NCBI GenBank assembly: GCA_029933075.1
Contig: JAOZOW010000006.1
Location: 1,080 to 65,079, forward strand
From: Deltaproteobacteria bacterium
GTDB taxonomy: Bacteria; Desulfobacterota; DSM-4660; Desulfatiglandales; Desulfatiglandaceae
Direction of reading: 5' to 3'
Length of the DNA stretch: 64,000 bases
How positions within the stretch are numbered: the first letter of the stretch is position 1; every line of letters begins with the position of its first letter. The notes under the pieces were generated by a model. It was not told the origin of the DNA. It ran no database searches and saw only the letters and a list, made by a program, of their open reading frames with translations. Positions 12,031 to 39,591 of the stretch are shown here, one piece after another. The translations under genes and the position numbers were made by a program.

Positions 12031-12032
12031 TC

Positions 12033-13661
12033 ATGGCCGAGACCCCCAAACCAGAAGAGATAGCGAGGATTGATCACAAGGCTCCTTTGTGGGAAGGCTG
12101 GATGAACAGGCCTGTGGATATCAGACCGGGCATCTATTGCTATGCAGCCAATCCGAAAAATGTCGAAGCTGTGGGGATGCCGAATGCCCGCCAGTGGAAT
12201 CCCGTTGATGAGGACTGGAAGCTGCCGGAGAACTGGCAGGAGATCTTTATTGAGGGGTTCAAAGACAGGCTGGGCAAGTTCCGCTCCCTGAAGCTGTTCA
12301 TGGATATCTGCGTCCGATGCGGGGCCTGCGCAGACAAATGCCATTTCTTTATCGGCTCGGGCGATCCCAAGAATATGCCTGTAATGCGGGCGGAACTGCT
12401 CAGGTCGGTGTACCGGAAGTATTTTACGACCGGAGGCAGGATTCTCGGTTTGCTGGCCGGTGCAAGAGGGCTCACCGATGAAGTGTTGAAGGACATCTGG
12501 TATTACCTGTATCAGTGCACGGAGTGTCGCCGCTGCTCGGTTTTCTGCCCTTACGGCATCGACACTGCGGAAGTTACGATCCTTGGGCGGGAGTTGACCA
12601 ACCTCCTGGGTCTTAATACCGACTGGATCCAGGCCCCAGTGGCAAACTGTTACCGGACGGGAAACCATCTGGGCATCCAGCCGCATGCCTACAAGGATAT
12701 GATCGACTTCTTTGTGGATGAGATCGAGGAGGTCACCGGGGTCAAGGTGGAGCCAAGCTTCAACAGAAAGGGCGCCGAGATCCTATTTATCACCCCTTCC
12801 GGCGATGTCTTTGCCGACCCTGGGACCTATACGGCCATGGGGTACCTCATCCTGTTCCATTATCTCCAGGACCAGGGCCTCGATATTACCTGGAGCACTT
12901 ATGCGTCCGAGGGCGGAAATTTTGGTTACTTTACCTCCCACGAAATGGCAAAAAGGCTGAATGCCAAGATGTACGCCGAGGCCAAGCGCCTGGGGGTAAA
13001 GTGGATCCTGGGCGGGGAATGCGGCCACATGTGGAGAGTTATAAACCAGTACATGGATACCTTCAACGGCCCGGCAGATTTTCTCGAGGAGCCGGTGTCC
13101 CCCATTACCGGCACGAAATTCGAGAATGCCAAGGGCACCAAGATGGTCCATATCGTGGAGTTCACCGCGGATCTCATCAAGAATAATAAGTTAAAGCTGG
13201 ATCCGAGCCGGAACGACAATTTAGTGGTGACATTCCATGATTCCTGCAATCCGGCCAGAGGGATGGGATTTTTTGAGGAGCCCAGATATATTATTAAAAA
13301 CGTATGCAACAACTTCTATGATATGCCGCCGAGCACCATCAGAGAGCAGACCTTTTGCTGCGGGAGCGGCGCAGGGCTGAATGCAGGGGAGGACATGGAG
13401 TTGAGAATGCGCGGCGGGCTGCCCAGGGCGAATGCTGTGAAATATGTCCACGAAAAGTACGGGGTGAACATGCTCGCATGCATTTGCGCCATTGATCGGG
13501 CCGTGTTGCCGAATTTAATGGAATACTGGGTCCCTGAGGTGGATGTCACCGGCGTTCACGAGATGGTCGGCAATGCCTTGATTCTGGACGGAGAGAAGGA
13601 GAGAACCACCAACCTGAGGGGTGAACCTCTGCCGGGAATGGAGGAGGAAGAGGATGTATGA
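12033..13661 (+). CDS. dsrK: DsrK, HdrD-like catalytic Fe-S subunit
   Basis: CVRCGACADKCHFF and CTECRRCSVFCPYG ferredoxin motifs, plus the CCG-domain signature FCCGSGAG. Confidence 0.9.
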   Translation: MAETPKPEEIARIDHKAPLWEGWMNRPVDIRPGIYCYAANPKNVEAVGMPNARQWNPVDEDWKLPENWQEIFIEGFKDRLGKFRSLKLFMDICVRCGACADKCHFFIGSGDPKNMPVMRAELLRSVYRKYFTTGGRILGLLAGARGLTDEVLKDIWYYLYQCTECRRCSVFCPYGIDTAEVTILGRELTNLLGLNTDWIQAPVANCYRTGNHLGIQPHAYKDMIDFFVDEIEEVTGVKVEPSFNRKGAEILFITPSGDVFADPGTYTAMGYLILFHYLQDQGLDITWSTYASEGGNFGYFTSHEMAKRLNAKMYAEAKRLGVKWILGGECGHMWRVINQYMDTFNGPADFLEEPVSPITGTKFENAKGTKMVHIVEFTADLIKNNKLKLDPSRNDNLVVTFHDSCNPARGMGFFEEPRYIIKNVCNNFYDMPPSTIREQTFCCGSGAGLNAGEDMELRMRGGLPRANAVKYVHEKYGVNMLACICAIDRAVLPNLMEYWVPEVDVTGVHEMVGNALILDGEKERTTNLRGEPLPGMEEEEDV

Positions 13662-14121
13662 CGGATGGAAGATCATCGTCGGGCTGATTGTCTGTTTGGC
13701 GTTTTTTACGTTCCCGTTTTTCTACGACGCAGGGAAGGCCGCCAAGGCGCCTGAGCCTGTGCTGACACCCAAGGCGAAAGAAGCAAAGGAGTGTGTGGCC
13801 CCCGGCGCCTATATGAAAAGGTATCATATGCAATTGCTGGAAGATTGGCGGAATACCGCGGTGCGGGGGGGCGAGCGGTATTATGATACGGGAAATCCTA
13901 CTTGGCACCTCCGGGTGATGGACAAGATTGCGGATGCGACCGCCTCTGCCGGCGAGAGGTTGTACAAGAGCGTAGAGAGGAAGGTCTATTATAAGAGCCT
14001 TCAGGTAACCTGTATGGATTGCCATTCCAACAAGAGCAAGTTCTGTGACCAGTGTCACAACTATATGGGGATAGCGCCCTATTGCTGGGAGTGCCATATC
14101 GAGCCAGAGGAGAAGAAGTGA
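13654..14121 (+). CDS. dsrJ: DsrJ, periplasmic triheme cytochrome c
   Basis: Three CxxCH motifs (CMDCH, CDQCH, CWECH), an N-terminal anchor helix and a conserved upstream Cys (KECVAP). ATG 13654 overlaps the dsrK stop. Confidence 0.9.
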   Translation: MYDGWKIIVGLIVCLAFFTFPFFYDAGKAAKAPEPVLTPKAKEAKECVAPGAYMKRYHMQLLEDWRNTAVRGGERYYDTGNPTWHLRVMDKIADATASAGERLYKSVERKVYYKSLQVTCMDCHSNKSKFCDQCHNYMGIAPYCWECHIEPEEKK

Positions 14122-14936
14122 TGGGCATAGACAGAAGAGAATTCCTGAAAGTAGCCGGACTTTCCGCACTTTTCGGCCTGGGCGGGAGAGCGGCTATGGA
14201 TATCCTTGCCCCGGGCGAGCTGGAAGCTTCCGCAGAGATCCCTCCTTTGAAGAAAGGGAAACAATGGGCCATGGTGGTTGATGCACTTAAGATGGACGAG
14301 GCCGTTATGGACAAATGCATAGAGGCCTGCCATCATGAGCACAATGTCCCTGACCTTGGGACTCCCAAGGAGGAGATCAAGTGGATCTGGAAGGAGGATT
14401 ACGAACATACGTTTCCGGATCAGGAAAACCCTTATATAGCTGAAGAATTCGAGCACAAGACATTTCTCCTGATGTGCAATCACTGCACACACCCCCCCTG
14501 TGTACGGGTATGTCCGACCAAGGCCACGTGGCAGAGGGAAGACGGGATCGTCATGATGGACCAGCACCGCTGCATAGGGTGTAGGTTCTGCATGGCCGCA
14601 TGCCCCTTTGGCGCCCGTAGCTTCAACTGGGGGGATCCGCGGCGCGTACTCAGGGTGGCAGAGTTGAAGGAATTGAACCGCGGCTTCCCATGGAATCACA
14701 ACTATCCCACGAGGTCCAAAGGGGTGGTCGAAAAATGCACCTTCTGTCCCGAGAGACTGGCCAAGGGCATGCTCCCAGCATGTGTTGAGGCGGCCAATAA
14801 GGTCAAAAAGGGCTCCATGATCTTTGGGGACCTTGCGGACCCCGAATCGGAAGTCAGAGAGGTTCTCAGAAAACGTTATTCGATTCGGCGGAAACCTGAA
14901 TTGGGGACGGAACCAAAACTATTTTTTGCAATATGA
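14121..14936 (+). CDS. dsrO: DsrO, periplasmic 4Fe-4S ferredoxin-like subunit with Tat signal
   Basis: MGIDRREFLKVAG twin-arginine signal and several CxxCxxCxxxCP-type motifs. TGATG overlap with dsrJ. Confidence 0.9.
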   Translation: MGIDRREFLKVAGLSALFGLGGRAAMDILAPGELEASAEIPPLKKGKQWAMVVDALKMDEAVMDKCIEACHHEHNVPDLGTPKEEIKWIWKEDYEHTFPDQENPYIAEEFEHKTFLLMCNHCTHPPCVRVCPTKATWQREDGIVMMDQHRCIGCRFCMAACPFGARSFNWGDPRRVLRVAELKELNRGFPWNHNYPTRSKGVVEKCTFCPERLAKGMLPACVEAANKVKKGSMIFGDLADPESEVREVLRKRYSIRRKPELGTEPKLFFAI

Positions 14937-14943
14937 GGTAGCT

Positions 14944-16101
14944 ATGCTTGAAACGGCGTTGAAGGGAAGACAGGGATACTGGGGCTGGCTGATATTTCTG
15001 CTCTTCATGATGGGCCTGGGGTTTGGTTGCTATATTTACCAGTTTCATGAAGGGTTGAGAATTACAGGGATGAGCAGGGATGTTTCCTGGGGTTTTTATA
15101 TTGCCCAGTTTACCTATCTCGTTGGGGTCGCGGCCTCCGGCGTGATGGTTGTATTGCCCTACTATCTCCATGATTACAAGGCGTTTGGCCGGATTACTGT
15201 CCTGGGTGAGTTTCTGGCTATTGCCGCGGTCACCATGTGCCTGCTTTTTATCTTTGTGGACCTCGGGTACCCGCTCAGGATAATGAACGTAATCATGTAT
15301 CCAACGCCCAATTCAATCCTGTTTTGGGACATGATAGTCCTGAATGGATACCTGCTTCTCAATATTTTCGTTGGCTGGAATGTGCTGAGTGCGGAGCGGA
15401 AAGGGATCATGTACCCCAAATGGGTCAAGGTCCTGGCATATATTTCCATCCCCTGGGCGTTCAGCATTCATACTGTCACAGCGTTCCTGTACGCGGGCTT
15501 GCCGGGAAGGCATTACTGGCTGACAGCCATTATGGCTGCCCGGTTTCTTTCCTCGGCATTTTGTTCCGGGCCTGCCTTGTTGATCCTGGTATGCCTGATC
15601 GTGAGAAGGGTGAGCAACTTCGACCCGGGAAAGGAACAGATAAGGACCCTGGGCGGCATAGTTGCCTATGCCATGATCCTTAACGTGTTCTTTTTCCTAC
15701 TGGAGCTTTTTACCTCTTTCTACAGCCAGATACCCGGGCACATGCATACATTTGAATTTCTGTTCCGGGGTCTCGAAGGACACGGGAGATTGGTGCCATG
15801 GATGTGGACGGCTGCAGCCTTTGCCCTGATTTCCCTGGTGCTGCTCATAGTACCGGCTACCCGGAGAAATGAAGATACCCTGGCAGTGGCGTGCGTGTCG
15901 GTCATTGTTGCCACATGGATTGACAAGGGACTGGGGCTGATCATAGGCGGTTTTACCCCCAATCCTTTTGAAAGAGTCACCGATTACTGGCCCACCACGC
16001 CTGAGGTCCTTATCACCCTGGGCGTCTATGCCACGGGATTTTTCGTGATGACGGTCCTCTACAAAATCGCAGTATCCATAAAAGAAGAGGTGGGTGCGTA
16101 G
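14944..16101 (+). CDS. dsrP: DsrP, NrfD/PsrC-family integral membrane quinone-interacting subunit
   Basis: 385-aa polytopic protein starting MLETALKGRQGYWGWLIFLLF. It holds the last position of the dsr membrane-complex operon. Confidence 0.88.
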   Translation: MLETALKGRQGYWGWLIFLLFMMGLGFGCYIYQFHEGLRITGMSRDVSWGFYIAQFTYLVGVAASGVMVVLPYYLHDYKAFGRITVLGEFLAIAAVTMCLLFIFVDLGYPLRIMNVIMYPTPNSILFWDMIVLNGYLLLNIFVGWNVLSAERKGIMYPKWVKVLAYISIPWAFSIHTVTAFLYAGLPGRHYWLTAIMAARFLSSAFCSGPALLILVCLIVRRVSNFDPGKEQIRTLGGIVAYAMILNVFFFLLELFTSFYSQIPGHMHTFEFLFRGLEGHGRLVPWMWTAAAFALISLVLLIVPATRRNEDTLAVACVSVIVATWIDKGLGLIIGGFTPNPFERVTDYWPTTPEVLITLGVYATGFFVMTVLYKIAVSIKEEVGA

Positions 16102-23700: not shown

Positions 23701-23726
23701 GGCCTCTTTGAAATGTCTCAAACCGG

Positions 23727-24482: not shown

Positions 24483-24497
24483 TGGATCACCTCCCTT

Positions 24498-27560: not shown

Positions 27561-28074
27561 GGGGCCTCCTTTCTCTTGAGGGTTGTTAACAACAAACAAT
27601 GTCATCGCTATCTGAAACCCGAACACTTAAGAATTTCTTTTTCTTTGATTATCACCTCCCGCAGCCTGAAGTTTTGGTGGATATGAGTTTCTTCTTTGAA
27701 GGTTAACCGCCAATGATATGAAGGGAATTTTCATGTTGGGGGTGAATAATGACGGTAAGCACTCTTAAAAAAATTTTTATCCATAAAAATCCCGGTTTTG
27801 TCAACCGTTTTTTCCTGTCTATTTTTTGGAAAATCAGCCACTTACATATATCAAAAATGACATAACCATATTAACCTTTCTCTTTCCAGGCGCTCCTCCG
27901 GGGCATTTTTATCCCTAAAACCTCCTGCTGGAGGTTCATTTCTGTTGCAAAATGGCTATAATGTAGTTACAATATAGTTATTTCTGTCCGGATTGGGCCT
28001 GAGGAGAAATACGTATCGGGGTCTTGGAAGAAGATCCCAGGCCCACCCGGCCATCTTCCGGGGAGGAAAAGTCC

Positions 28075-28470
28075 ATGTCAGAGGAGATAAGGGGCGCCGT
28101 ACTGGTGGTGGGAGGGGGCATTGCTGGGATGCAATCCGCTCTGGACCTGGCTGATTCCGGGTATTACGTGTACCTGCTTGAAAAAAGCCCTTCCATTGGT
28201 GGAGGAATGGCACAATTGGATAAGACCTTTCCCACCAATGATTGCGCCATGTGAATCATTTCTCCAAAACTGGTCGAGGTCGGCCGGCACAGAAACATTG
28301 AGTTGATCACTTATGCAGATCTTGAGTCCGTGGAGGGGTCTGCCGGAGATTTCAGGGTCCGGATCAAGAAACGTGCGCGCAGCATTGATATGAATCTGTG
28401 CACCGGATGCGGCAATTGTATCGAAAGCTGTCCTGTGACAAACAGGCCCGTTTCCGCTTCACCGCCATAA
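28075..28470 (+). CDS. HdrA N-terminal fragment (FAD-binding half of the thioredoxin-reductase-like domain plus first Fe-S motif of the inserted ferredoxin domain) with Sec
   Basis: GGGAGG RBS. Sequence [29 protein letters not shown]...[21 protein letters not shown](28252-28254)[23 protein letters not shown]...[13 protein letters not shown], with stop at 28468-28470. The TGA sits at the DCxxC position of HdrA. Confidence 0.75.
28270..28287 (+). promoter_or_regulatory. Candidate SECIS hairpin for the hdrA fragment
   Basis: CUGGUC-GAGGUC-GGCCGG: 6-bp stem including two G-U pairs and a GGU-containing loop, starting 15 nt after the UGA. Confidence 0.4.
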
Positions 28471-28483
28471 TCCTGAATTATCC

Positions 28484-29026
28484 ATGTTTGAGCCATTAGG
28501 GGGCGGAGGAGAGTTCTCCCCCCGGATAAGAGAATGGGACGACATGCAAGCACCTTTTGAGATCCGATTGGAAAAGATCGAAGAGATAATTGAAAAGTAT
28601 CATGGAGATCGCGAGGCCCTGCTCATGATCTTGCAGGATATCGCCGACATCCACAATTATGTGCCTCCCGAGGTGGTACCCCTCCTTGTGGAGAGACTGG
28701 GCGTCAGGCCGAGCCTGATTTACAGCGTGGCTACTTTTTATAAGACCATCAGCCTGGAGCCCAGGGGAAAGTATGTCATCAACGTCTGTACTGGTACCGC
28801 CTGCCATGTTAGAGGGGCTGACAAGATCATGGAGGCATTAAAAGAAAAGCTCGGGATCGATGAAGGTGAGACCACGGAGGATCTGAAATTCACCCTGGAG
28901 GCCGTGCGGTGCGTGGGCTGCTGCGCCTCCGGGCCGGTGATCACCGTAAATCGGGAAACGCACGGCGGGCTTGACCGCTCCAGTGCCCTGAAGATCATTG
29001 AATCGTATGAGAAGGAGATCTCCTGA
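28484..29026 (+). CDS. NuoE/HoxE-like [2Fe-2S] thioredoxin-fold subunit
   Basis: CTGTACHVRGA...CVGCCASGPV cysteine pattern. The start is uncertain: ATG 28484 or ATG 28544. Confidence 0.85.
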   Translation: MFEPLGGGGEFSPRIREWDDMQAPFEIRLEKIEEIIEKYHGDREALLMILQDIADIHNYVPPEVVPLLVERLGVRPSLIYSVATFYKTISLEPRGKYVINVCTGTACHVRGADKIMEALKEKLGIDEGETTEDLKFTLEAVRCVGCCASGPVITVNRETHGGLDRSSALKIIESYEKEIS

Positions 29027-29060
29027 CCCCCGGGTTCCCATAAGAAGCAACGACTGAACT

Positions 29061-30911
29061 ATGGCCACCTTAAAGAACAGTGAATCTCTGGACAGGCTCA
29101 GAGAATCCCTAAAAGAGAGAGGGGAGAGAGGCGCGCGATTGGTGTCCTTATGCGCCGGCTCCGGCTGTGCCGCCTATGGGACGGGAAGGGTCTACAGGGC
29201 CCTTAAAGAGGAACTTGCCCGGCAGGGGATGGAGGGAGATGTGGAGGTAAAGCTCACAGGGTGCCATGGGTTTTGTGAGAAGGGGCCCATTATGGTTCTC
29301 CACCCCGAAGGTTTTTTCTACCCTCAGGTCAAGGAAGAACAGATCCCCGAGATCGTGGAAAAAAGCATTAAGGGGGGAGAGTTGATCGAGAGCCTGGTCT
29401 TCAAGGACCCTGTAACGAAAAAGATGATTCCCTATGAGCGAGATGTCCCCTTTTACAGGCTGCAGCAGCGGATAATTTTCGGCAATAATGGGATCATCGA
29501 TCCCACCAATATTGAGGATTACATTGCCGTGGGCGGCTACAGTGCCCTGCAGAGAGCCCTGTTCGAGATGACCCCGGAGGAGATCATCGAGGAAATAAAG
29601 CGCTCTGGATTGCGGGGCCGAGGGGGGGGAGGTTTTCCTACGGGGATCAAGTGGGAGAGCTGCAGGCGGCATGAGGGAGAGCGGTATGTGATCTGCAATG
29701 CTGACGAAGGCGACCCGGGTGCCTATATGGACCGCAGCCTCCTTGAGGGCAACCCCCACAGCGTGGTGGAAGGGATGATTATCGGCGCCGTTGCCATCGG
29801 TTCCCGTGAGGGGTACGTGTATGTAAGGCATGAGTATCCCCTGGCCGTCAAGAACCTGACGAAGGCCCTGGAGGCGGCTGAGGAATACGGCCTCCTGGGC
29901 AGGGATATCCTCGGCTCAGGCTTTGATTTTGAGATCCGGATCAGCCGCGGCGGCGGGGCCTTTGTGTGCGGCGAGTCCACCGCGCTCATGGCTTCCCTGG
30001 AAGGGAACCCCGGGCGACCGAGGGCCAAGTATGTCCATACAGTGGCGCGGGGTTTCCGACAGAATCCTTCCAATCTGAATAATGTGGAGACCTGGGCCAA
30101 TGTGCCTGTCATCATCAACAGGGGAGCGGATTGGTATGCCTCCATAGGCACGGAGAACAGCAAGGGCACGAAGATATTCTCGCTGGTGGGGAAGGTTGTC
30201 AATACCGGTCTGGTGGAAGTGCCCATGGGCACGAGCCTCAGAACCATCATTTACGATATCGGCGGTGGAATTCCCAAGAAGAAACAATTTAAGGCGGTGC
30301 AGACGGGCGGACCCTCCGGGGGCTGTATTCCCGGACAATTTCTGGACTTAGGCGTTGACTTTGACGAGCTTGCAAAGGTGGGCTCCATGATGGGCTCTGG
30401 CGGAATGATCGTGATGGACCAGGATACCTGCATGGTGGATGTGGCCCGCTATTTTCTGGATTTCTTGAAGGAGGAATCATGCGGCCAGTGCACTCCCTGC
30501 CGCGAGGGGATCAAGCAGATGCTGGAGATCCTTACAAACATCTGTGAAGGACACGGCAAAGAAGGAGATATAAGTCTGCTTGAAGAGCTGGGCGGCATGG
30601 TCAAGAAGTTTTCCCTGTGCGGGCTGGGGACCTCCGCCCCGAATCCGGTGCTGACCACCATCCGGTATTTTAGGGATGAATACGAAGCGCACATCAGGGA
30701 TAAAAGATGCCCCGCTGGGGTCTGCAAGAACCTCTTTCACTACGAGATAGACCCCGATACGTGCACCGGCTGCCGTCTTTGTGCCCTGAAGTGCCCTCAA
30801 GGGGCCATCAGCGGTGAAAAAAAGAAACCTCACAAACTGGACCAGGACAAATGTATCAAGTGCGGGGTCTGCTATGACGCCTGCAAATTCGGTGCGGTGC
30901 TGATCAAGTAG
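29061..30911 (+). CDS. NuoF/HydB-like NAD(H)-binding FMN flavoprotein with N-terminal 2Fe-2S domain and C-terminal 2x[4Fe-4S]
   Basis: [23 protein letters not shown] motif, [13 protein letters not shown]3-cluster motif, and C-terminal [12 protein letters not shown] and [11 protein letters not shown]. Confidence 0.9.
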
Positions 30912-30972
30912 CCTCCTGTGGGTTCGAGCCTGTGGAGAGATCGAAGATGGAAATGCTCGAGGGAAATCGTCC

Positions 30973-33900
30973 ATGATCACTTTCAAACTCAATGGCCGCG
31001 AGGTTCAGGGAGAAGAGGGGGAATACATCCTTGAGGTGGCCGAGAGATACGGGGTGGAGATCCCCACCCTTTGCCATCACAAGGCCTTAGAACCGGCGGG
31101 TGCGTGCAGGCTCTGCACGGTGGAACTCTTCGACGGGCGCAGGACCCGCTTCGTCACCGCTTGCAACTATCCCATCTGGGAAGGCATGGAGGTCTATACG
31201 GATACCGATGAGGTGCGAAGGGGGCGCAAACTGATCGTGGAGCTTCTCCTGGCCCGGTGCCCTGAAGTCCCCATTATCAGGAGACTGGCGGAGGACTACG
31301 GCATTGAGGAGCCCCGATTCAAGAAAGATGAAGATGACTGCATCCTCTGCGGGCTTTGCACCCGCATTTGCGAAAGGATGGGAAACGGGGCCATCAGCCT
31401 CGCGGGAAGAGGCGTGGGCTTGAAGGTGACTACGCCTTTCGAGATCCAGTCGGATCTATGCATGGCCTGCGGGGCCTGTGTCTCGGTCTGCCCCACAGGA
31501 CATATCAAGCTGGAGGAGATCACCAAGCACACGGTTAAACCCATACCCTCCGAGTATGATATGGGGTTGAGAGGACGAAAGCCCATCTATGTGCCCTATG
31601 CCCAGGCTGTCCCCAACACGCCTGTGATTGACCGAGACACCTGCATGCACTTCAGGACAGGGGAATGCAAGATATGTGTACAGTCGTGCAGCGCCGGTGC
31701 CATCGACCACGCCCAGCAGGATGAAGCGATAGAGTTGCGCGTGGGCGCTATTATCTTGGCCCCCGGTTTTCAGGCCTTCGACCCTGGCCGGTACGAAGCT
31801 TACGGCTATGCCGAAAACCCGAATATCGTCACTTCCATGGAATTTGAGAGGCTTCTGTCAGCATCAGGCCCAACAATGGGACATCTTGTGAGGCCTTCGG
31901 ACGGAAAGGAACCCAGAAGGATCGCCTGGGTGCAATGTGTGGGCTCCAGGGACGTCCACCGCTGCGACAATGCTTATTGCTCCTCCGTGTGTTGTATGTA
32001 TGCCGTAAAACAGGCGGTGATCGCAAAGGAACATGCCGGAGGCGAACTGGACTGCGCCATTTTCTACATGGATATGCGCACCCATGGCAAAGACTTCGAG
32101 AGGTATTACAATGACGCCAGGGATAAGCATGGAGTACGCTTCATCCGTTCGCGGATCCCCGCCATTGAGACGGTGAAGGAGACCGGAGAACTTCTGGTGC
32201 CTTATGTGAATGAAAAGGAACGGGTTGTGGAGGAGCGGTTTGACCTGGTTGTCCTTTCTGTGGGTCTGGAGACCGCTGCCGAGGTGGTGGAACTTGCAAA
32301 GAAGCTGGGTGTGCAGCTGACGGAAGGTCGATTCTGCAAGACCGATCCGTTCCGTCCGGTGGCCACTTCCAGGGAGGGCATCTTTGTCTGCGGCGCCTTC
32401 CAGGGGCCTAAGGACATTCCCCAGTCAGTGATCGAGGCCGGCTCCGCAGCAGCCGAGGCAGGGGCCCTGCTGAGTGAAGGTAGAAACAGCCTTACCCTGA
32501 CCAGGGAGGAGCCGCAGGAGCGGGACTGCCGTGGAGAGAGGCTCCGGGTGGGGGTGTTTGTATGTCGTTGCGGGATCAATATCGCCGGCGTGGTGGACGT
32601 GGAAGCAGTACGGGACTATGCCGCATCCCTGCCCCATGTGGAGTATGTGGCTGACAACCTTTACACCTGTTCCCAGGATACCCAGGAGAGCCTCACGGAG
32701 GTGATCAAGGAGAAAAACCTGAACAGGATCGTGGTGGCGGCATGCACCCCCAAGACCCACGAGGCCCTTTTTCAGGAAACCATGGCCAATGCGGGGTTGA
32801 ATAAGTACCTGTTTGAAATGGCCAATATTCGAAATCAGGATTCCTGGGTGCATCAGGAAGACCCGGAGGCCGCCACGGCCAAGGCCAAGGATCTGGTCCG
32901 CATGGCTGTGGCCAAGGTGACCCTTTTGGAGCCCCTCCGGGAGGCGGAACTTGAGGTCAACCAGAAGGCACTGGTGGTAGGGGGAGGGGTCGCCGGGATG
33001 ACGGCTGCCAGGGCCCTTTCCGCCCAGGGATATGAGGTCTGCCTTGTAGAGCGGGCTCAGTCACTCGGGGGGCAGGCCCGCAACCTGTACCGCATGTGGA
33101 CCGGGGAGAATATCCAGGAGAGACTCGAGGAGCTTATAGAAGCGGTGCAGGGAGATGAAAACATCAGGGTCCACTTAGAGACCGAGTTAGGCAATGTAGA
33201 GGGTTTTGTAGGCAATTTCAGGACCACCCTGATTTGTCGGGGCAAGGAAGAGGTGGTGGAGCATGGTATTGCCGTCATTGCCACCGGCGCACAGGAGCTC
33301 AAGCCCAAGGAATACCTCTATGGAGAGGATTCCAGGGTGGTCACCCACCTTGAACTGGACCGGATGTTCATGAATGATGAATCCGCTCTCAGGGGAATCA
33401 AGAGGGCGGTGTTCATTCAGTGCGTGGGATCGAGGGAACCCGAAAGACCTTATTGCTCCAGGGTCTGCTGTACCCACTCGATCGAGAGTGCCCTCCATTT
33501 GAAAGAATTGAACCCGGATATGGATGTCTATATTCTTTATCGGGATATCCGGACTTATGGCGAGCGGGAATATCTATACCGAAAAGCCCGCCTTGCCGGC
33601 ATCCTTTTCATCCCTTTTTCTCTGGAGCGGAAGCCCCGGGTCTCATTGGGACAGGGAGCGCTGAAGATAGATATCTGGGACCCTTTGCTTTGCCAGGATA
33701 TTGTCATGAACTCCGACCTCCTGGTTCTGGCCGCCGCCATTGTCCCTTACGGGGATCAAAAATTGGCCCGAATGTTCAAAGTTCCCCTCAATGAGGATGG
33801 ATTTTTTGTGGAAGCCCATGCCAAGTTAGGGCCTTCGGAGTTTGCCACGGATGGGGTTTACCTGTGTGGCATGGCCCATTATCCCAAGCCCATTGATGAA

Positions 33901-34206
33901 TCCGTAGCCCAGGCCCAGGCCGCGGTTTCCCGCGCCGTGACACTGCTGGCCAGGCAAAAAATCAAGACGAGCGGCACTGTTGCTGAGGTCAATCCCCTTT
34001 ACTGCAGCAGCTGCGGGGTGTGCGTGGAGGTCTGCCCCTATAAGGCCCCGACCATGCGTGAACAGGGGCCTTTTGCGGGAAAGGCGGAGGTGAATCCGGT
34101 GCTGTGCAAGGGCTGTGGAATCTGTGTGGCCTCCTGTCGCTCAGGGGCCATGAGCCTGAAAGGGTTCGGCAATGATCAGATCATGGCTATGATCGCCCAT
34201 ATGTGA
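30973..34206 (+). CDS. 1077-aa fusion: NuoG-like 2Fe-2S plus 2x[4Fe-4S] N-terminus, C-terminal half of an HdrA module, then a second HdrA-like module
   Basis: [11 protein letters not shown]...[15 protein letters not shown] (2Fe-2S), then [12 protein letters not shown] and [12 protein letters not shown]. Next [18 protein letters not shown]...WVQCVGSRD...[10 protein letters not shown], the HdrA region that follows the inserted ferredoxin. Then [14 protein letters not shown]...VAACTP (HdrA N-domain), [15 protein letters not shown], and C-terminal [12 protein letters not shown] and [11 protein letters not shown]. Confidence 0.85.
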
Positions 34207-34274
34207 TCGGGGCTGTGGAGGCAGAAGACACCGAGCCCACGGGGATTTGTGAGATTGATATTGTGGAGAAGAGC

Positions 34275-34706
34275 ATGCACGACTGGCAACCTAAAATCAC
34301 CGCTTTTTTGTGTCACTGGTGTAGTTACGGTGCGGCGGATCTGGCTGGTGTCAGCCGCCTTCAATATCCGCCAAATTTCAGAATAATCCGGGTGCCGTGC
34401 TCCGGCCGAGTGAGCCCCAAATTCATCCTGGCCGCCTTCCGTCACGGGGCCGACGGCGTTTGGGTGAGCGGGTGACATCCGGGCGACTGTCATTACCTGG
34501 AAGGTAATTATTATGCCAGGCGAAAATTTGTGCTTTTGAAAAATCTCTTGGAGCACATTGGCCTGGAACCGGGAAGGCTTCATTTCTCATGGATTTCTTC
34601 TGCCGAGGCCGCCAAGTTTGTGGAAGTTGCCAATGAGGTTAACCAAGTGGTGGAGGAACTGGGACCTGCGAGATTCCTCGTGAAACGAAAAGCCCGGGTG
34701 GCATGA
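34275..34706 (+). CDS. mvhD: MvhD/FlxD-like [2Fe-2S] protein with Sec
   Basis: [18 protein letters not shown]...VPCSGRV...[12 protein letters not shown](34473-34475)[14 protein letters not shown]. The TGA replaces the Cys of the G-C-x-x-G-x-C-H-Y motif. Same frame throughout; stop at 34704-34706 overlaps the next start (ATGA). Confidence 0.8.
34492..34508 (+). promoter_or_regulatory. Candidate SECIS hairpin for mvhD
   Basis: AUUACCU-GGA-AGGUAAU: perfect 7-bp stem (or 6 bp with a UGGAA loop), starting 16 nt after the UGA. Confidence 0.45.
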
Positions 34707-35656
34707 TGCTACATTATACGGAAAAAATCAGAGAGATCGCCGGGAGACTCCTGAAACAGGGGGTGGTGGACGTATTTATCGGCTACAGGAAGGGCTCGGT
34801 CCCCATGATGAATAATCCTTTATTGATTAGGGATCCCGGCAGCACGGATCTCCTTTACTGGGACAGCAATTGTGCGCTGAACCTTTGCAATTATTTGACA
34901 GGGAGGAAGGACAGGATCGGGATTGTGGCCACCGGTTGCGTTTCAAGAAATATCGTCACCCATATAGTTGAAAACCAGATCAGCCGCTCCCAGCTCTATG
35001 TAGTCGGGATCCCATGCACGGGGATGATAAGCCACAGGGCAGTGATAAGAGCGGTGGGCGGGAGGGAAATCATCGAATTTGAGGAACAGGGGGAGCGATT
35101 CCTGGTACGCGGGCGGGATTTTGAAGAGATATTTGAAAAGAATGATTTCCTCCAAAGCAATTGCGCCGTGTGCAGATATCCCAATCCGGTGCTGTACGAC
35201 GAGATGTTGGGAGAGCGTGTGCCGGGATATGAAGGGGACGATGTCTACAGGGACGTGGAAAAGGTGGAGCAGATGAGCAGTGAGGATAGGCGTGGCTTTT
35301 TCTCGCGCATGATCTCCCGCTGTATTCGTTGTTATGCCTGCAGGGATGCCTGTCCTTTATGTTATTGCCCCACCTGTTTTGTGGATGAATCGCGGCCCCA
35401 GTGGGTGGGGAAAAGCATAGACCCTGTGGACACAATGACCTTTCATCTGCTGCGGGCCTTTCACTGTGCCGGCAGGTGTACGGATTGCGGCGCATGCGAG
35501 CGTGCCTGTCCCATGGGTATCCCGGTCAGGCAGTTTACCAAGAAACTCAACAAGGACGTCCAGGAGCTGTTTTCCTGGGAGGCGGGGCTCGGCCTGGAGC
35601 AGAGGCCCCCCTTGGATGTGTACAGGCAGGATGACTACGACGGTTTTATTCGATGA
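34703..35656 (+). CDS. Fe-S protein, FlxC-like (AsrA / sulfhydrogenase-beta paralogue)
   Basis: CIRCYACRDACPLCYCPTCF and CTDCGACERACP motifs; 317 aa; translationally coupled on both sides. The B versus C assignment is tentative. Confidence 0.6.
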   Translation: MMLHYTEKIREIAGRLLKQGVVDVFIGYRKGSVPMMNNPLLIRDPGSTDLLYWDSNCALNLCNYLTGRKDRIGIVATGCVSRNIVTHIVENQISRSQLYVVGIPCTGMISHRAVIRAVGGREIIEFEEQGERFLVRGRDFEEIFEKNDFLQSNCAVCRYPNPVLYDEMLGERVPGYEGDDVYRDVEKVEQMSSEDRRGFFSRMISRCIRCYACRDACPLCYCPTCFVDESRPQWVGKSIDPVDTMTFHLLRAFHCAGRCTDCGACERACPMGIPVRQFTKKLNKDVQELFSWEAGLGLEQRPPLDVYRQDDYDGFIR

Positions 35657-36693
35657 CGGCCTATAGAGTATACAGCAAGGAGGAATGGACCAGTGCAGTG
35701 AAGGCCCTGGAGTCTCACTATCAGGTATTTGTGCCCGTAAAGGATGGGGATTTTCATCTATTCGGCCTTCTTTCGGAGGGCAAGAGGCCGGATTTTGATT
35801 TTCAAAATACGCACCTTTCTCCCAAGTCCATCGTATATCCCCAGTCGGAGCGCATGTTCGAGTACAGTCTGGACGGAGAGGACCCTGACGCCCACATGCT
35901 GAAAGAAGCGCCAAAGGATTTTTCGCCCAGGGCCATCGTCGGCATCAGACCTTGTGATGCCTTGGCCTTTCAAAGGGTCAGGGTCAATTTCGACACCCCC
36001 CGGTACCGGGACCCCTGGTGGGTGAGCCGGTTCGAGTCCACCACCTTTGTGGGTTTGGGCTGCAATGCCCCTGAGGCCACCTGCTTTTGCACCTCGGTAG
36101 GCGGCGGCCCCTTCAGCGAAGCGGGTCTGGACGTGTTACTCTACGACTTGGGAGACCGCTTCCTGGCCAAGGTGCTCACCTCCAAAGGGGATGGCCTTTT
36201 GAAGAAAGCCCTGGGGGGAATGGAGGCGGATGGTACTTTGGTGCGACAGGCAGAATCACTGGCACTCAAGGTGACAGAGGCCATGCCGGCCGTTGTTCCA
36301 GTTGATGGTTTGAAAGACAAATCAGTACTGGAACTATTTGAGGCGCCTTTCTGGGAGGATGTGGCTTTTGGCTGTATCAACTGCGGCACCTGCACCTATC
36401 TCTGTCCCACCTGCTGGTGCTTTGACATACAGGACGAGGTGCTGGGAAAGTCGGGGGATCGTATTCGCAACTGGGATTCCTGCATGTTCCCCCTGTTTAC
36501 CCTGCATGGATCAGGACACAACCCAAGGGGCGGGAAGGTGGCGCGGGTACGCCAGCGCTTCATGCACAAGCTGAAGTATTATTTGGACAAGTATAACGAA
36601 GGAGTTCAGTGTTCGGGCTGCGGGCGCTGTGTGCGCTCCTGTCCCGCAAATATTGATATCCGGCAGGTAGCCGAACTCATGAACAGTCTATGA
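35653..36693 (+). CDS. Fe-S protein, FlxB-like (AsrA / sulfhydrogenase-beta-like)
   Basis: CINCGTCTYLCPTCWCFDIQDE and CSGCGRCVRSCP motifs; 346 aa. Confidence 0.65.
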   Translation: MTAYRVYSKEEWTSAVKALESHYQVFVPVKDGDFHLFGLLSEGKRPDFDFQNTHLSPKSIVYPQSERMFEYSLDGEDPDAHMLKEAPKDFSPRAIVGIRPCDALAFQRVRVNFDTPRYRDPWWVSRFESTTFVGLGCNAPEATCFCTSVGGGPFSEAGLDVLLYDLGDRFLAKVLTSKGDGLLKKALGGMEADGTLVRQAESLALKVTEAMPAVVPVDGLKDKSVLELFEAPFWEDVAFGCINCGTCTYLCPTCWCFDIQDEVLGKSGDRIRNWDSCMFPLFTLHGSGHNPRGGKVARVRQRFMHKLKYYLDKYNEGVQCSGCGRCVRSCPANIDIRQVAELMNSL

Positions 36694-37556
36694 GTAAGCG
36701 AGCCCGTATGACCCTCGACAACCCATATTTACCCTATCCGGTGCGCATCGAGCAGATCGTGACCGAGACCGAGGACGGCAATCTCAAGACCTTCCGTCTT
36801 GTATTCTTGAATCCGGAGCACGAGGAGAAGTTTCGCTATATGCCGGGGCAGTTCGCCGAGCTTTCCATTGCGGGGAAGGGCGAGATTCCTATCGGCATTG
36901 CTTCTTCTCCCACCGAGAGAGGGTTTTTGAGTTTTACGGTGAACAGAGTAGGGGTGGTGACCGCCCATCTCCATAACATGAAGGAGGGAGATGTGATGGG
37001 AGTCAGGGGTCCGCTGGGAAACTGCTACCCCTGGGACGAGATGGAGGCAAAGAATGTGGTCATCATCGGCGGGGGCTTTGCCTTTACCACCCTGAGATCG
37101 AGCCTTGTATATCTCCTTGACCCCCAAAACCGCTCCAGGTTCAAGGATGTCATCGTGGTCTATGGGGCCAGGAGCCCGGGCATGCTTCTTTACAGAGATG
37201 AACTCTGGCAGTGGGAAAAGCGGGACGACCTCCAGATGCATGTGACCGTCGATGCCACGGATGATCCTGACTGGAAACACCACACAGGATTTGTCCCCAC
37301 CATTGTAAAAAAGGTGGTCCCATCCTCGGACAGCTCGGTGGCCTTGGTGTGCGGCCCCCCTGTTATGATCAGAAACACCCAACCTGTGCTGGAAGACTTG
37401 GGGTTTCCGCCCGAGAGGGTCTTTTTGTCCCTTGAGATGCGCATGAAGTGCGGCATAGGCATGTGCGGCAGATGCAATATCGGAGATCAATATGTGTGCA
37501 AGGACGGCCCCGTATTCTCTTTGGCCCAGCTCAAAGAGATGCCCCCGGAGTACTGA
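36690..37556 (+). CDS. FAD/NAD(P)H-binding [2Fe-2S] oxidoreductase, FlxA-like (AsrB / sulfhydrogenase-gamma / PyrK fold)
   Basis: FNR-like fold (RYMPGQF, VVIIGGGFAFTTL) with C-terminal CGIGMCGRCNIGDQYVCKDGPVF. Confidence 0.75.
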   Translation: MSKRARMTLDNPYLPYPVRIEQIVTETEDGNLKTFRLVFLNPEHEEKFRYMPGQFAELSIAGKGEIPIGIASSPTERGFLSFTVNRVGVVTAHLHNMKEGDVMGVRGPLGNCYPWDEMEAKNVVIIGGGFAFTTLRSSLVYLLDPQNRSRFKDVIVVYGARSPGMLLYRDELWQWEKRDDLQMHVTVDATDDPDWKHHTGFVPTIVKKVVPSSDSSVALVCGPPVMIRNTQPVLEDLGFPPERVFLSLEMRMKCGIGMCGRCNIGDQYVCKDGPVFSLAQLKEMPPEY

Positions 37557-37592
37557 ACCGGGGGGCAGCTTACGGCAATAAGGAAAGGTTCT

Positions 37593-38102
37593 GTGACTGT
37601 GAGCAAAATCGACCTTGATCAAGCGGATGCAGGCTTCAAAAAGGAATTGATGTCCCAGCCGGGTGGAGAGATGATCTCGGCCTGCTTCATGTGTCGCACC
37701 TGCGTGGCGAGCTGTCCCATATCCGCCGTGAATGATAGATTTCACCCCCTCAGGATCATTCGCATGGCCCTTTACGGACTCAAGCATGAGGTCCTGAGAA
37801 GTGAATTCATATGGCTTTGCTCCAGTTGCTATGCCTGCCAGGAGAGGTGCCCCCAGGGCGTCAGCATCACCGAGTTCATGACACTGCTCAAGAACTTGGC
37901 TGTAAAGGAAGGCCATATGCCTACGGGGATAAGGGCGCAACTGGACCTGGTAAAAGGGCAGGGCCGAATTTATCCCCTGGACGATTTCGACAACAAGAAG
38001 CGCGGGAAGGTGGGACTTCCGCCTCTGCCAACTTCATGCGATGTTGTGCAAAAGCTGTTTCCAGCGGAAGTTGAGGATAAGGGGCCCTCAGGCCGAGGAT
38101 AG
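37593..38102 (+). CDS. hdrC: Heterodisulfide reductase subunit C-like
   Basis: CFMCRTCVASCPIS and CSSCYACQERCPQG motifs; GTG start; 169 aa. Confidence 0.8.
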   Translation: MTVSKIDLDQADAGFKKELMSQPGGEMISACFMCRTCVASCPISAVNDRFHPLRIIRMALYGLKHEVLRSEFIWLCSSCYACQERCPQGVSITEFMTLLKNLAVKEGHMPTGIRAQLDLVKGQGRIYPLDDFDNKKRGKVGLPPLPTSCDVVQKLFPAEVEDKGPSGRG

Positions 38103-38162
38103 GAGTGTCCGTCACAGAATAGGAACTACTCTGCCGGGTCAAGTTGAATCGTTTACTCTGGG

Positions 38163-39059
38163 ATGACGACAATGAGATATGCACTGTTTTTGGGATGCAC
38201 CATTCCCGCCAGGTCCAGGAACTATGAGCTTTCCGCAAGGCATGTGGCCGGCAAGCTGGGTATTGAGCTGGTGGACGTGGAGGAATTCGCATGTTGCGGA
38301 TTCCCCATCAAGGCCAGTGACCGCAAGGCCTCTGAATTAATGGCCGCATATAATCTGTCGCTGGCCGAAAAGCGGGGCCTGGATCTCCTGACCCTTTGCA
38401 GCTCATGTTCTTCAGCCCTTACAGAAGCGGCACACAGCCTGGAGACCGGCGGTGCCCTGCGAGGACATGTCAATGATGCACTTGCAAGGGTAGGGCTCCA
38501 CTACCAGGGCCGGGCCAGGGTGAGACACTTTGCCCGGGTCCTTTTTGAAGAAGTGGGCGCGGAGAAGATTGCACAATATTTGGAAAGGGATTTGAAGGGT
38601 CTCAAGGTCGCAGTCCATTACGGATGCCACTACCTAAAACCATCTGAAATCTATGACCGTTTTGATTCCGTTGAAATCCCTGAGACTATTGAAACCCTTG
38701 TTGCCCTGACCGGTGCGGAGGTGGTGGACTATCCGGGCAAAAAGCTGTGCTGTGGAGGGCCGGTGCTCCCTGTAGATGAGAAGGTAGCCATGGCCGTGGC
38801 AAAAGAGAAACTTGACAATATTGTAGATGCAGGTGCCGATGCCATGTGCTTGGTATGTCCTTTCTGTTCGGTAATGTATGACGGTAACCAGAAAAGCATC
38901 GAATCGGAATATCAGAAGAGCTACAGGCTCCCTGTGCTTTACCTGACCCAGATCTTGGGCCTGGCAATGGGGTTTGATCGCAAGGCCCTTGGCCTGAACA
39001 TGAATGTGGTCAAGACAAAGGAACTTCTTGCCCCTTTTTTTGGTAAAGGATCAGCTTAA
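38163..39059 (+). CDS. hdrB: Heterodisulfide reductase subunit B-like (two CCG domains)
   Basis: EEFACCGFPIKA and KKLCCGGPVLP CCG signatures; 298 aa. Confidence 0.85.
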   Translation: MTTMRYALFLGCTIPARSRNYELSARHVAGKLGIELVDVEEFACCGFPIKASDRKASELMAAYNLSLAEKRGLDLLTLCSSCSSALTEAAHSLETGGALRGHVNDALARVGLHYQGRARVRHFARVLFEEVGAEKIAQYLERDLKGLKVAVHYGCHYLKPSEIYDRFDSVEIPETIETLVALTGAEVVDYPGKKLCCGGPVLPVDEKVAMAVAKEKLDNIVDAGADAMCLVCPFCSVMYDGNQKSIESEYQKSYRLPVLYLTQILGLAMGFDRKALGLNMNVVKTKELLAPFFGKGSA

Positions 39060-39300
39060 GGGTAAGATTTTAAAGGGAAAAATGGAAAGGAAGAGAGGTT
39101 TTTGCTGATATTTTCGCCCGGGGTGGGGTTTGACGGTTGGAATTTTTTGATAAAATGTTTATAATATAACGGTAAATCAGAGCTGATGGCCTCGCAGGAA
39201 GTCACAACTTCTCTTCTCCTTTGAAAGGGCAAGAGAGGCGCATGATTTTTTGCGGAAGCATAACAAATTGAAATCCCAGTCGATAGGAGAAGAACTTACG

Positions 39301-39543
39301 ATGACCGAATCCAAAACCATAACATTTCCCAAAACTGTTCCTCTTATAGAACGGATAGAGGGGGTGAGCAAGGAGATTTCAAAGTGGCTTGAATCACTTG
39401 AGGAACCCTTTGATATGGACAGGGACACAATGCACCTGGTAAAGGCGGAGAGAAACGACCATTACAGCTATCACTATATTTTGGATCGTGCAGTCAAAGG
39501 ACCGGAGAAAAAGTCAGCCTCCCACAAATCCAAACAGGGATGA
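39301..39543 (+). CDS. Orphan small ORF (80 aa), hypothetical
   Basis: ATG 39301 follows AGGAGAAGAA. Sequence MTESKTITFPKTVPLIERIEGVSKEISKWLESLEEPFDMD... has no recognisable motif, so coding status is uncertain. Confidence 0.3.
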   Translation: MTESKTITFPKTVPLIERIEGVSKEISKWLESLEEPFDMDRDTMHLVKAERNDHYSYHYILDRAVKGPEKKSASHKSKQG

Positions 39544-39591
39544 TGAAACACGGAAAGTAGGGGCTGGGGACAAAAGAGAACATATGCCGAA

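Follow-up and report, generated by a model that had tools for sequence, protein, structure and literature searches.

The locus described here raises the question of whether ten adjacent genes, which bring together NuoEF-type and FlxA-type NAD(P)H modules, HdrA flavin modules, an MvhD adaptor and an HdrCB disulfide-reducing unit, encode one electron-bifurcating complex, and by which route electrons would pass through it. The genes occupy positions 28075-39059 of a stretch of 64,000 nucleotides (contig JAOZOW010000006.1 of assembly GCA_029933075.1, positions 1,080 to 65,079) from a Deltaproteobacteria bacterium of the family Desulfatiglandaceae. This whole stretch is referred to as the window; all coordinates are positions within it, while identity percentages and locus numbers (L001 and onward) refer to relatives fetched in scans of genomes and metagenomes. 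Our analysis points, with a probability of about 0.8, to a single bifurcating complex of the Flx-Hdr/BamE type linked to DsrC. Its central feature is a predicted HdrA-HdrA tandem (HdrAA), in which nuoE, nuoF and a BfuA domain sit within the inserted ferredoxin domain of the first HdrA.

The split tandem HdrA and the selenocysteine sites

The two HdrA modules are distributed over two genes of the plus strand, G1 and G4, which are parted by nuoE and nuoF, so that the two HdrA units do not share one polypeptide in the window. G1 (28075-28470, 131 aa) represents the N-terminal piece of HdrA module 1. It contains the GxGxxG Rossmann motif for flavin adenine dinucleotide (FAD), the redox-active residues C57-A-M-U60 and, from the inserted ferredoxin domain, the first CxxCxxCxxxCP motif (Cys107-117). 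Against unsplit homologues of approximately 1010 aa that bear the same CAMU motif, it aligns collinearly with residues 1-120. G4 (30973-34206, 1077 aa) is composed of a BfuA domain, the rest of HdrA module 1 and the whole of HdrA module 2. The HdrA2 profile of NCBIfam continues from one protein to the other, with positions 138-256 matching G1 and positions 257-580 matching G4 residues 191-520. G1 stops just past the first of the Cys motifs in the inserted ferredoxin domain, and G4 takes up the domain a few residues on, at 'KPIPSEYD'.

Three parts can be distinguished on G4, all read on the plus strand. Residues 1-180 (30973..31512) form a type-2 BfuA or NuoG-N-terminal domain for one [2Fe-2S] and two [4Fe-4S] clusters (PF13510 and Fer4_7; match to the 'NuoG-like protein' 9mqx_A with E 2e-43), with Cys motifs at residues 34/45/48/64, 123-133 and 163-173. 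Residues 181-520 (31513..32532) comprise the inserted ferredoxin domain's second half with Cys224-239, a thioredoxin reductase (TrxR) core, and the motif with the Lys linked to the bifurcating FAD. Residues 521-1077 (32533..34206) correspond to a complete HdrA module 2, with an N-terminal four-Cys domain, a TrxR core and a C-terminal ferredoxin domain with two [4Fe-4S] clusters (Cys1011-1055); the HdrA chains of PDB entries 8rvu, 5odc and 7bkb align from about their own residue 9 to G4 residue 521 onward. In unsplit relatives CxxU occupies residues 57-60, and residue 278 is the Lys in CSSVCCMYA(I/V)K; their second module reads CSRVCCTHS.. without the Lys. Module 2 of G4 likewise has neither the Lys nor a CxxC/U motif, and only module 1 therefore keeps the hallmarks of a bifurcating FAD, Cys-x-x-Sec and Lys. 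Module 1 and its ferredoxin domain must be rebuilt from two polypeptides. By their count of Cys motifs, G1 and G4 residues 181-1077 together would bind seven [4Fe-4S] clusters and two FAD; the split pair likely works like a tandem HdrA, and the core of the predicted complex is this rebuilt tandem with the architecture of BamE, the HdrA-type subunit of class II benzoyl-CoA reductase (BCRII).

The original prediction, which was made from the same DNA, counted two HdrA-like flavin modules, and both are present; G1, however, is a fragment of a split HdrA rather than a stand-alone module, and the split architecture had been missed. The NuoEF-type module was likewise recovered, with nuoE and nuoF both confirmed, but the NuoG/BfuA domain at the N-terminus of G4 makes it a module of NuoEFG type.

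G1 is short, and gene callers break it at its UGA codon into pieces of 59-81 aa. It might accordingly be taken for a dead remnant of the insertion, with G4 working alone and its first HdrA module devoid of FAD. We regard this as extremely improbable. G1 shows 72-84% identity across the split loci, its proportion of nonsynonymous differences from homologues (pN, 0.10-0.22; 0.10-0.17 across the split loci) lies far below that of synonymous differences (pS, 0.6-0.85 and 0.6-0.8, respectively), and both its selenocysteine (Sec) codon and the associated selenocysteine insertion sequence (SECIS) are conserved. On these grounds G1 is considered functional and under purifying selection instead of being a relic. 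In addition, the GxGxxG motif for FAD and the CxxU motif lie in G1 and are missing from module 1 as present in G4.

The presence of two Sec residues, proposed in the original prediction, was borne out by the alignment of TGA with TGA or Cys codons in homologues and by conserved synonymous sites. The UGA codon for residue 60 of G1 (28252..28254, plus strand), which stands in the context TNDCAM-UGA, is matched by TGA in 64 of 68 homologues and by Cys codons in the other 4; for the UGA of MvhD (34473..34475, plus strand), 56 of 59 homologues have TGA and 3 a codon for Cys. Among 61 distinct G1 and 51 distinct MvhD sequences, the third codon positions from +17 to +35 past each TGA are 97-100% invariant (with one position at 90% in the MvhD set), compared with 30-80% conservation of the third positions flanking these blocks; in the MvhD set the synonymous positions from +20 to +35 show 90-100% invariance. 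A SECIS-type hairpin is found downstream of each codon on the plus strand: that of G1 (28270..28287) begins 18 nt past the UGA and has a 7-bp stem with an AGGU loop in the centroid structure, while that of MvhD (34492..34508) begins 19 nt past the UGA and has a 7-bp stem with a GGA loop, for which the minimum free energy and centroid structures agree. Folding of single sequences over the 60 nt past each UGA was uninformative (z = -0.01 and -0.34). Because of the alignment of TGA and Cys codons in homologues, and of the invariant synonymous blocks that form hairpins, both in-frame TGAs are regarded as genuine Sec codons served by bacterial SECIS hairpins. Some methanogens likewise have Sec at these positions of HdrA and MvhD.

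The ten-gene cluster and its recurrence across genomes

All ten same-strand genes of the original prediction were found as open reading frames (ORFs) of the plus strand at 28075-39059, and their domain identities were confirmed by Pfam, NCBIfam and PDB searches. The successive gaps along the cluster measure 13 (73 with the later nuoE start), 34, 61, -4, -4, -4, -4, 36 and 60 nt; all but the last agree with the distances given earlier, where this gap had been put at 68 nt. The overlaps of 4 nt at the G4/mvhD/G6/G7/G8 junctions amount to translational coupling.

The first of the genes between G1 and G4 is nuoE (28544..29026, with an alternative start at 28484), which encodes a BfuC/HydC-like [2Fe-2S] subunit (PF01257, 1e-49) whose best PDB matches are HydC of the bifurcating hydrogenases 8a6t, 7p5h and 7t2r and the Wor-Bfu chain 9mqx_C. 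It is followed by nuoF (29061..30911), encoding a BfuB/HydB-like subunit of 616 aa, assigned by its Pfam domains and PDB matches. In NuoF, Pfam places an N-terminal thioredoxin-like [2Fe-2S] domain at residues 22-101, a flavin mononucleotide/NADH domain at 179-349, the NuoF [4Fe-4S] domain at 460-544 and a C-terminal domain for two [4Fe-4S] clusters at 561-612. The protein aligns from end to end with HydB of the NiFe-type enzyme 7t2r_B (E 7e-244), with Wor-Bfu 9mqx_B and with HydB 8a6t_B, all at E <= 1e-230.

Downstream of G4, mvhD or flxD (34203..34706) starts either at a GTG at 34203, which overlaps the G4 stop codon, or at an ATG at 34275, and encodes the [2Fe-2S] adaptor with Sec91 (PF02662, FlpD, 3e-55; VhuD, 135 bits). 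G6 (34703..35656) encodes a FlxC-like iron-sulfur protein with Fer4_8 and Fer4_17 matches at residues 204-273 only, and in related loci its position is always between mvhD and G7. G7 (35653..36693) encodes a FlxB-like iron-sulfur protein related to sulfhydrogenase beta subunits and AsrA (PF17179, 9e-32; HydB, ShyB and AsrA profiles over the full length; PDB 9nez_B, E 6e-37). The product of G8 (36690..37556) is a FlxA-like flavoprotein for FAD, NAD(P)H and a [2Fe-2S] cluster, of the HydG/AsrB/PyrK/NfnA type, with FAD_binding_6, NAD_binding_1 and DHODB_Fe-S_bind domains, matches to the HydG, ShyC and AsrB profiles, and the motif C254-x4-C-x2-C-x7-C. No match to a Flx-specific NCBIfam model was obtained. 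The cluster is closed by hdrC (37593..38102; TIGR03290, 4e-32), which encodes a protein with two CxxCxxCxxxCP motifs for two [4Fe-4S] clusters, and by hdrB (38163..39059), which encodes the disulfide-reducing subunit with two PF02754 domains. A regular-expression search of the HdrB sequence identified two complete CCG motifs, C12..C44C45..C79xxC82 and C155..C196C197..C229xxC232. HdrB scores 272 bits against TIGR03288 (cut-off 345) and HdrC 111 against TIGR03290 (cut-off 160), and neither is thus an equivalog of the CoB-CoM heterodisulfide reductase, which makes the heterodisulfide formed from coenzymes M and B (CoM-S-S-CoB) unlikely as a substrate. The Flx-type genes stand in the order D-C-B-A, with hdrC ahead of hdrB, as had been noted originally.

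Upstream of G1, an AT-rich intergenic region of 448 nt (27627..28074) without a long ORF is common to the cluster and to a divergent operon for a Sec-containing formate dehydrogenase (Sec-FDH), and presumably contains the promoter or promoters of the cluster. Promoter-like hexamers at 27798 and 27945 are not commoner than in shuffled sequences. The same holds for the sites found in a promoter and terminator scan of 27500-39700, which gave no convincing internal terminator and cannot fix the operon limits.

The genomic distribution of the arrangement was investigated in two scans. The first covered one genome per GTDB species and yielded relatives of G4 in 467 loci, of which 80 were fetched by similarity; the second was centred on HdrB in metagenomes, from which 80 loci were likewise fetched by similarity. 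Many loci in both scans are incomplete. With relatives in 467 species-level genomes and approximately 8000 protein clusters at E <= 1e-50, the G4 family is very large and conserved, and it is physically linked to dsrC and hdrCB. The closest relatives (72-78% identity, with P0002 at 78%) belong to uncultured Desulfobacteraceae, Desulfatiglandales and 'Deltaproteobacteria' metagenome-assembled genomes (MAGs), and L028 and L029 are Desulfotignum MAGs of the type of the window. Among the other loci, L014 is assigned to Desulfobacterium sp. N47, L019 to Desulfonema limicola and L024 to Desulfatitalea alkaliphila.

The site at which HdrA is split was found in several states. The NuoE-NuoF-BfuA insertion of the window is present in 43 of the 80 genome loci, and 22 loci encode unsplit, single polypeptides. 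An in-frame GltD/NfnB-like domain of about 480 aa (Fer4_20 and Pyr_redox_2) occupies the site in five loci (L052, L060, L070, L075 and L077), lying at approximately 9960-12200 in L060 and L075; this fusion probably corresponds to the 'HdrL' fusion described for Desulfobacterium autotrophicum. Three further loci, L049 (6497-10400), L055 and L063, have an iron-sulfur-rich extension and a cytoplasmic Sec-containing FdhA-type molybdopterin subunit between the two halves, and the remaining seven loci are cut at the 5' end. The order G1-nuoE-nuoF-G4-mvhD-flxCBA repeats in dozens of species-level genomes, and such recurrence lies far beyond chance. Next to these states, L030 (1839-6965) displays G1 followed directly by a BfuA-HdrAA gene, with neither nuoE nor nuoF between them, and has Cys codons at both Sec positions. 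The identities of NuoE/NuoF to their counterparts in the window fall into two classes among L001-L080, about 45-50%/58-66% and about 66-73%/70-81%, which do not track the identity of G4; this suggests that the nuoEF cassette has been exchanged between loci.

The original prediction described a cluster in which NuoEF-type and FlxA-type modules are joined to two HdrA-like flavin modules, MvhD and HdrCB, and named as one possible refutation that the NuoEF/HdrA part and the Flx/HdrCB part are never linked in orthologous genomes. This refutation fails, and recurring synteny supports one conserved unit with a NuoEF module of HydBC type: the NuoEF/HdrA part is linked to the Flx part in 34 of the 43 NuoEF-split loci, and hdrCB is linked to one or the other in many others. 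Adjacent hdrCB orthologues were found in 13 loci of the genome scan, where they are 66-79% identical, and in roughly 45 loci from metagenomes, about 60 in all. The HdrB-centred scan, together with two look-ups, places them directly 3' of NuoEF-split HdrAA (for example in L081, L085, L092, L125 and L162), divergent from it (L082, L088, L089, L101, L127, L133 and L160), or after flxA (L145, L148, L154, L161 and several incomplete contigs).

This variation would also agree with two or more separate enzymes encoded side by side, namely a NuoEFG-HdrAA-HdrCB complex and a Flx module serving another HdrA, in which case no ten-subunit complex would exist. Module combinations do vary between genomes, and NuoEF-split HdrAA, mvhD-flxCBA and hdrCB were seen together in the window only, among the loci of both scans. 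Furthermore, L006 shares both flanks of the window, the divergent Sec-FDH upstream (also found on the P0002 contig) and a convergent protein of about 1570 aa downstream, yet goes from G4 directly to hdrC; the four-gene block mvhD-flxCBA is therefore an insertion or deletion at this locus. We nevertheless consider separate enzymes improbable. From G4 through mvhD, G6 and G7 to G8, each gene shares 4 nt with the next. In 58 of the 80 genome loci a tandem HdrA is followed by mvhD-flxCBA, irrespective of what occupies the split site, and this block has no HdrA of its own. Furthermore, flxA and hdrC are adjacent in at least 13 metagenome loci.

Proposed electron routes and the probable link to DsrC

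For complete-oxidising sulfate reducers, the Desulfobacterales and Desulfatiglandales that are abundant in marine sediment, the connection of cytoplasmic NAD(P)H and ferredoxin with DsrC has not been settled. A canonical dsrC is located directly 3' of flxA in 33 related loci, and its 105-aa product is 73-100% identical among them; the C-terminal end of DsrC in related loci reads ...CKMAGLPKPTGCV, and the 105-aa DsrC after flxA terminates in ...GACKMAGLPKPTGCV. In the window, genes for all five subunits of DsrMKJOP, the membrane complex that reduces DsrC, are present at 10939..16101 on the plus strand, each scoring above the curated NCBIfam cut-off. Based on these genes, the host is predicted to be a sulfate or sulfite reducer of the Dsr type, and the cluster lies in an energy-metabolism island. 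DsrC interacts with FlxABCD-HdrABC in Desulfovibrio vulgaris, according to work cited in PMC10504309. The complex probably supplies electrons to DsrC, and the suggestion of a DsrC-type disulfide as its partner, already part of the original prediction, is in this respect supported by the related loci and by dsrMKJOP; a tblastn search with DsrC detected no dsrC in the window itself.

The specific wiring that we favour, to which we give an even chance, is that of a soluble, selenium-dependent, multi-flavin bifurcating complex of a Dsr-type reducer in which the Bfu module is placed on the low-potential branch. MvhD-FlxCBA would act as the NAD(P)H-oxidising input, as proposed for FlxABCD, and HdrC-HdrB as the high-potential exit, reducing a protein disulfide or trisulfide that is most probably DsrC; homology and synteny point to both roles. 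The inserted ferredoxin domain, which is the low-potential exit in HdrA and BamE, would in the window have been opened and a HydBC/Bfu-type module grafted into it. As suggested by the position of the insertion, the low-potential electron would be passed to, or received from, a second site of bifurcation acting on NAD(H) and ferredoxin, and not directly exchanged with free ferredoxin. One electron from NAD(P)H at FlxA would go to DsrC, and the other through the Bfu module to NAD+ and ferredoxin. With NADH used throughout, the predicted stoichiometry would be 3 NADH + 2 DsrC(ox) + 2 Fd(ox) -> 3 NAD+ + 2 DsrC(red) + 2 Fd(red), where Fd stands for ferredoxin. The yield of ferredoxin per DsrC would be half that of plain Flx-Hdr, and so more driving force would be available for each ferredoxin reduced; the reaction may be reversible.

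MvhD-FlxCBA is read as the input because mvhD is always contiguous with flxCBA and never with nuoEF. The Bfu module is assigned to the low-potential exit because three unrelated redox modules entered the same point, with the Flx and Hdr partners remaining constant. The couples of these inserted modules are, by estimate, more negative than that of NADH: CO2/formate, NADP+/NADPH in vivo, and NAD+ plus ferredoxin with an average of about -400 mV.

Several points weigh against this wiring. Gene fusion speaks for closeness in sequence, which is not the same as the distance from cluster to cluster. With NADH as donor at FlxA and as product at NuoF, the scheme would be partly circular, unless FlxA uses NADPH or the gearing holds. 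HdrB falls below the CoB-CoM equivalog cut-off, so that DsrC as its substrate is a prediction only, and the lack of a dsrC gene in the window counts on the same side. NuoEF-split HdrAA is accompanied by hdrCB, with no mvhD-flx nearby, in L005, L006, L035 and L081, and NuoEFG could be the sole input there. Finally, BCRII, the only characterised complex with both module types, uses its HydBC-type module as the input and not as the partner of the inserted ferredoxin domain.

The last point leads to an alternative in which the two modules are wired in series as in BCRII. In the complex of Geobacter metallireducens, Bam[(BC)2DEFGHI]2, a HydBC-type and an HdrA-type bifurcation module are coupled: BamGHI represents the HydBC-type module and confurcates NADH and reduced ferredoxin, electrons pass from BamI over the C-terminal ferredoxin domain of BamE to BamF and the FAD, and the inserted ferredoxin domain of BamE, which holds clusters E5 and E6, leads on to Bam(BC)2 as the low-potential output (bioRxiv 10.64898/2026.04.10.717634). 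Applied to the window, NuoEF-BfuA would be a confurcating input that takes up NADH and reduced ferredoxin and supplies the bifurcating FAD with electrons by way of G4's C-terminal ferredoxin domain and MvhD. The high-potential electron would proceed to HdrCB and DsrC, and FlxCBA would lie on another branch, as an NAD(P)+ output or an alternative second input. Such wiring has been shown by experiment in the only characterised complex with both modules, benzoyl-CoA reductase, which is to date also the sole demonstrated case of two different bifurcation modules coupled in series. The cluster count of G1 and G4 equals that of BamE, and a NuoEFG input would suit the loci without mvhD and flx genes nearby, which besides the four mentioned include L085, L092 and others. 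The argument from these loci is weakened by L041, L043 and L047, in which unsplit HdrAA and hdrCB stand alone, showing that partners are often encoded elsewhere. Moreover, serial wiring offers no account of why Bfu, GltD and FdhA modules entered the same point of the inserted ferredoxin domain, it leaves the NAD(P)H site of FlxA without a thermodynamically sensible role on the low-potential branch, and it does not meet the contiguity of mvhD with flxCBA, which fits docking of Flx through MvhD. We therefore judge it rather unlikely.

The placement of the Bfu module on the low-potential branch invites a broader reading, which we put forward tentatively and at less than even odds. The tandem HdrA of Desulfobacterota would be a chassis and its inserted ferredoxin domain a plug-in socket for low-potential partners, be it free ferredoxin, a GltD/NfnB-like NADP module, a Sec-containing formate dehydrogenase or a HydBC-type module. 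The window would hold the most complete version, with two bifurcation sites set head-to-tail via the low-potential branch, in a polarity opposite to that of benzoyl-CoA reductase, and coupling NAD(P)H, NAD+, ferredoxin and DsrC within a single soluble complex. If so, the complex would set the ferredoxin:DsrC gearing of sulfate respiration, and models of energy yield would change if the principle known from benzoyl-CoA reductase, or its mirror image, runs in core sulfate reduction. The common insertion site also provides a natural series of module swaps at one position, useful for probing the routing of low-potential electrons in HdrA-type enzymes.

The surroundings of the cluster contain several further features. 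A gene for an RsbRD_N-domain protein (10366-10893) precedes dsrMKJOP, and a periplasmic-type hydrogenase is encoded at 17593-21051. The large-subunit gene of this NiFe hydrogenase (approximately 18235-19878) has two in-frame TGAs at 19684-19695 on the minus strand, at both Cys positions of the N-terminal RxCGxCxxxH motif, which would read RT-U-GV-U-TMVH, and its C-terminal motif is DPCIAC with Cys; a stable hairpin with a GGU loop is located 17-36 nt past the second TGA (z = -1.98). In known NiFeSe hydrogenases it is the C-terminal motif that contains Sec, and a double N-terminal Sec in a NiFe hydrogenase would be unusual. Between the hydrogenase and formate dehydrogenase operons lies a gene for a B12-binding radical SAM protein (21015-22691, plus strand). 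The divergent Sec-FDH reported originally upstream of the cluster was found there as fdhE, fdhB and Sec-fdhA, the last with a twin-arginine translocation (TAT) signal, at 22704-27626. Downstream of hdrB, the best sigma-70-like promoter match of the scanned region (TTGGAA-17-TATAAT, 39137-39165) precedes an ORF of 80 aa (39301-39543, plus strand) without a Pfam match. A conserved neighbour, an ORF of 1589 aa (39592-44361, minus strand), likewise has no Pfam match, and its homologues of 1571 and 1647 aa hold the same convergent place just downstream of hdrB in L006 and L047.

Comparison with known systems

BCRII is the closest characterised relative of the core. BamE, described as 'a fused HdrA dimer', binds clusters E1-E7 and two FAD; its first TrxR domain holds the bifurcating FAD together with Lys280 and Cys59/Cys62, and the second FAD does not bifurcate. 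BamF is an adaptor of MvhD type that contains Sec, and BamD a fusion of HdrB and HdrC (10.64898/2026.04.10.717634). The correspondence with the window is collinear: C57/U60 and Lys278 of G1+G4 take the places of Cys59/Cys62 and Lys280, the second FAD is likewise predicted to be non-bifurcating, and the seven [4Fe-4S] clusters and two FAD counted for G1+G4 equal those of BamE. G1+G4 is thus classified as a BamE-type protein, and the two systems also share a Sec-bearing MvhD-type adaptor and an HdrBC-like high-potential exit. Given these likenesses (G1+G4 to BamE, BfuA to BamI, Sec-containing MvhD to BamF, NuoE/NuoF to BamG/BamH and HdrCB to BamD), the cluster might represent the electron-activating portion, of bamDEFGHI type, of a class II aryl-CoA (benzoyl-CoA) reductase whose tungsten catalytic subunits are encoded elsewhere. 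The differences render this very improbable. A Pfam scan of the window, which took in its 50 non-overlapping ORFs of 90 aa or more except for nine smaller ones, found no AOR-family or BamB/BamC gene, and the neighbours of the cluster in relatives are dsrC, hdrCB or unrelated genes and not bamBC. Genomically, the cluster is tied to dsrC and dsrMKJOP and not to aromatic catabolism. FlxCBA is present in the window and absent from bam clusters; the BamI equivalent of the window is fused to the HdrA protein, and its HdrA gene is split. HdrC and HdrB are separate and unfused, and both CCG motifs are intact in HdrB, unlike in most BamD homologues. The cluster is accordingly not predicted to encode a benzoyl-CoA reductase.

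Compared at the domain level, FlxABCD-HdrABC of D. vulgaris has the same FAD/NAD(P)H flavoprotein, two iron-sulfur proteins and MvhD together with HdrA, HdrB and HdrC. In the window the genes run in the opposite order (D-C-B-A, then C-B), HdrA is a tandem fusion, NuoEF-BfuA is inserted, and two Sec are present; in the citing literature, the Desulfovibrio Flx-Hdr appears with a single HdrA, without NuoEF, and with DsrC as the proposed or shown partner. In relation to the Bfu family (HydABC, NiFe-Bfu, Wor-Bfu and Nfn-Bfu/Stn; PMC9304861, PMC12318220), NuoE, NuoF and the N-terminus of G4 can be matched along their entire length to BfuC, BfuB and type-2 BfuA, with all cluster-binding domains present, and they are assigned by these matches as full members of the Bfu/HydABC family. 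The module for the third substrate differs, being here a tandem HdrA fused to BfuA, which, apart from Bam-Bfu, is not a class listed in the portion of PMC9304861 available to us. The methanogen complexes MvhADG-HdrABC and Fdh-Hdr (PDB 5odc, 7bkb and 8rvu) share with the window the fold of HdrA, an adaptor of MvhD type and an HdrBC unit with CCG clusters. The window cluster differs from them in having no hydrogenase and a tandem, permuted HdrA, and its HdrA, HdrB and HdrC fall below the methanogen equivalog cut-offs; DsrC rather than CoM-S-S-CoB is the likely substrate.

At the level of annotation, nuoEFG-mvhD-hdrA units are listed for Desulfotignum phosphitoxidans (PMC4046663), HdrL1-MvhD adjoins dsrABC in D. 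autotrophicum (PMC2702500), and HdrL or Hdr-Flox clusters with large Sec-containing HdrA-type proteins followed by mvhD have been described, including in Syntrophobacter fumaroxidans (PMC5947623); the five related loci with a GltD-like insertion fit the description of an 'HdrA/glutamate synthase fusion'. In the literature searched, within whose reach some key papers did not fall, no account was found of an HdrA split by nuoEF, of the common insertion site or of the ten-gene combination. The term 'undescribed' used in the original prediction was nevertheless too strong, as BCRII already couples both types of module and the relatives in PMC4046663 and PMC2702500 exist at the annotation level. 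Rather than being categorically new, the cluster appears to be an uncharacterised variant of Flx-Hdr and of the electron-transfer part of BCRII, to both of which the split gene and the common insertion site, as predicted here, represent a concrete and testable addition.

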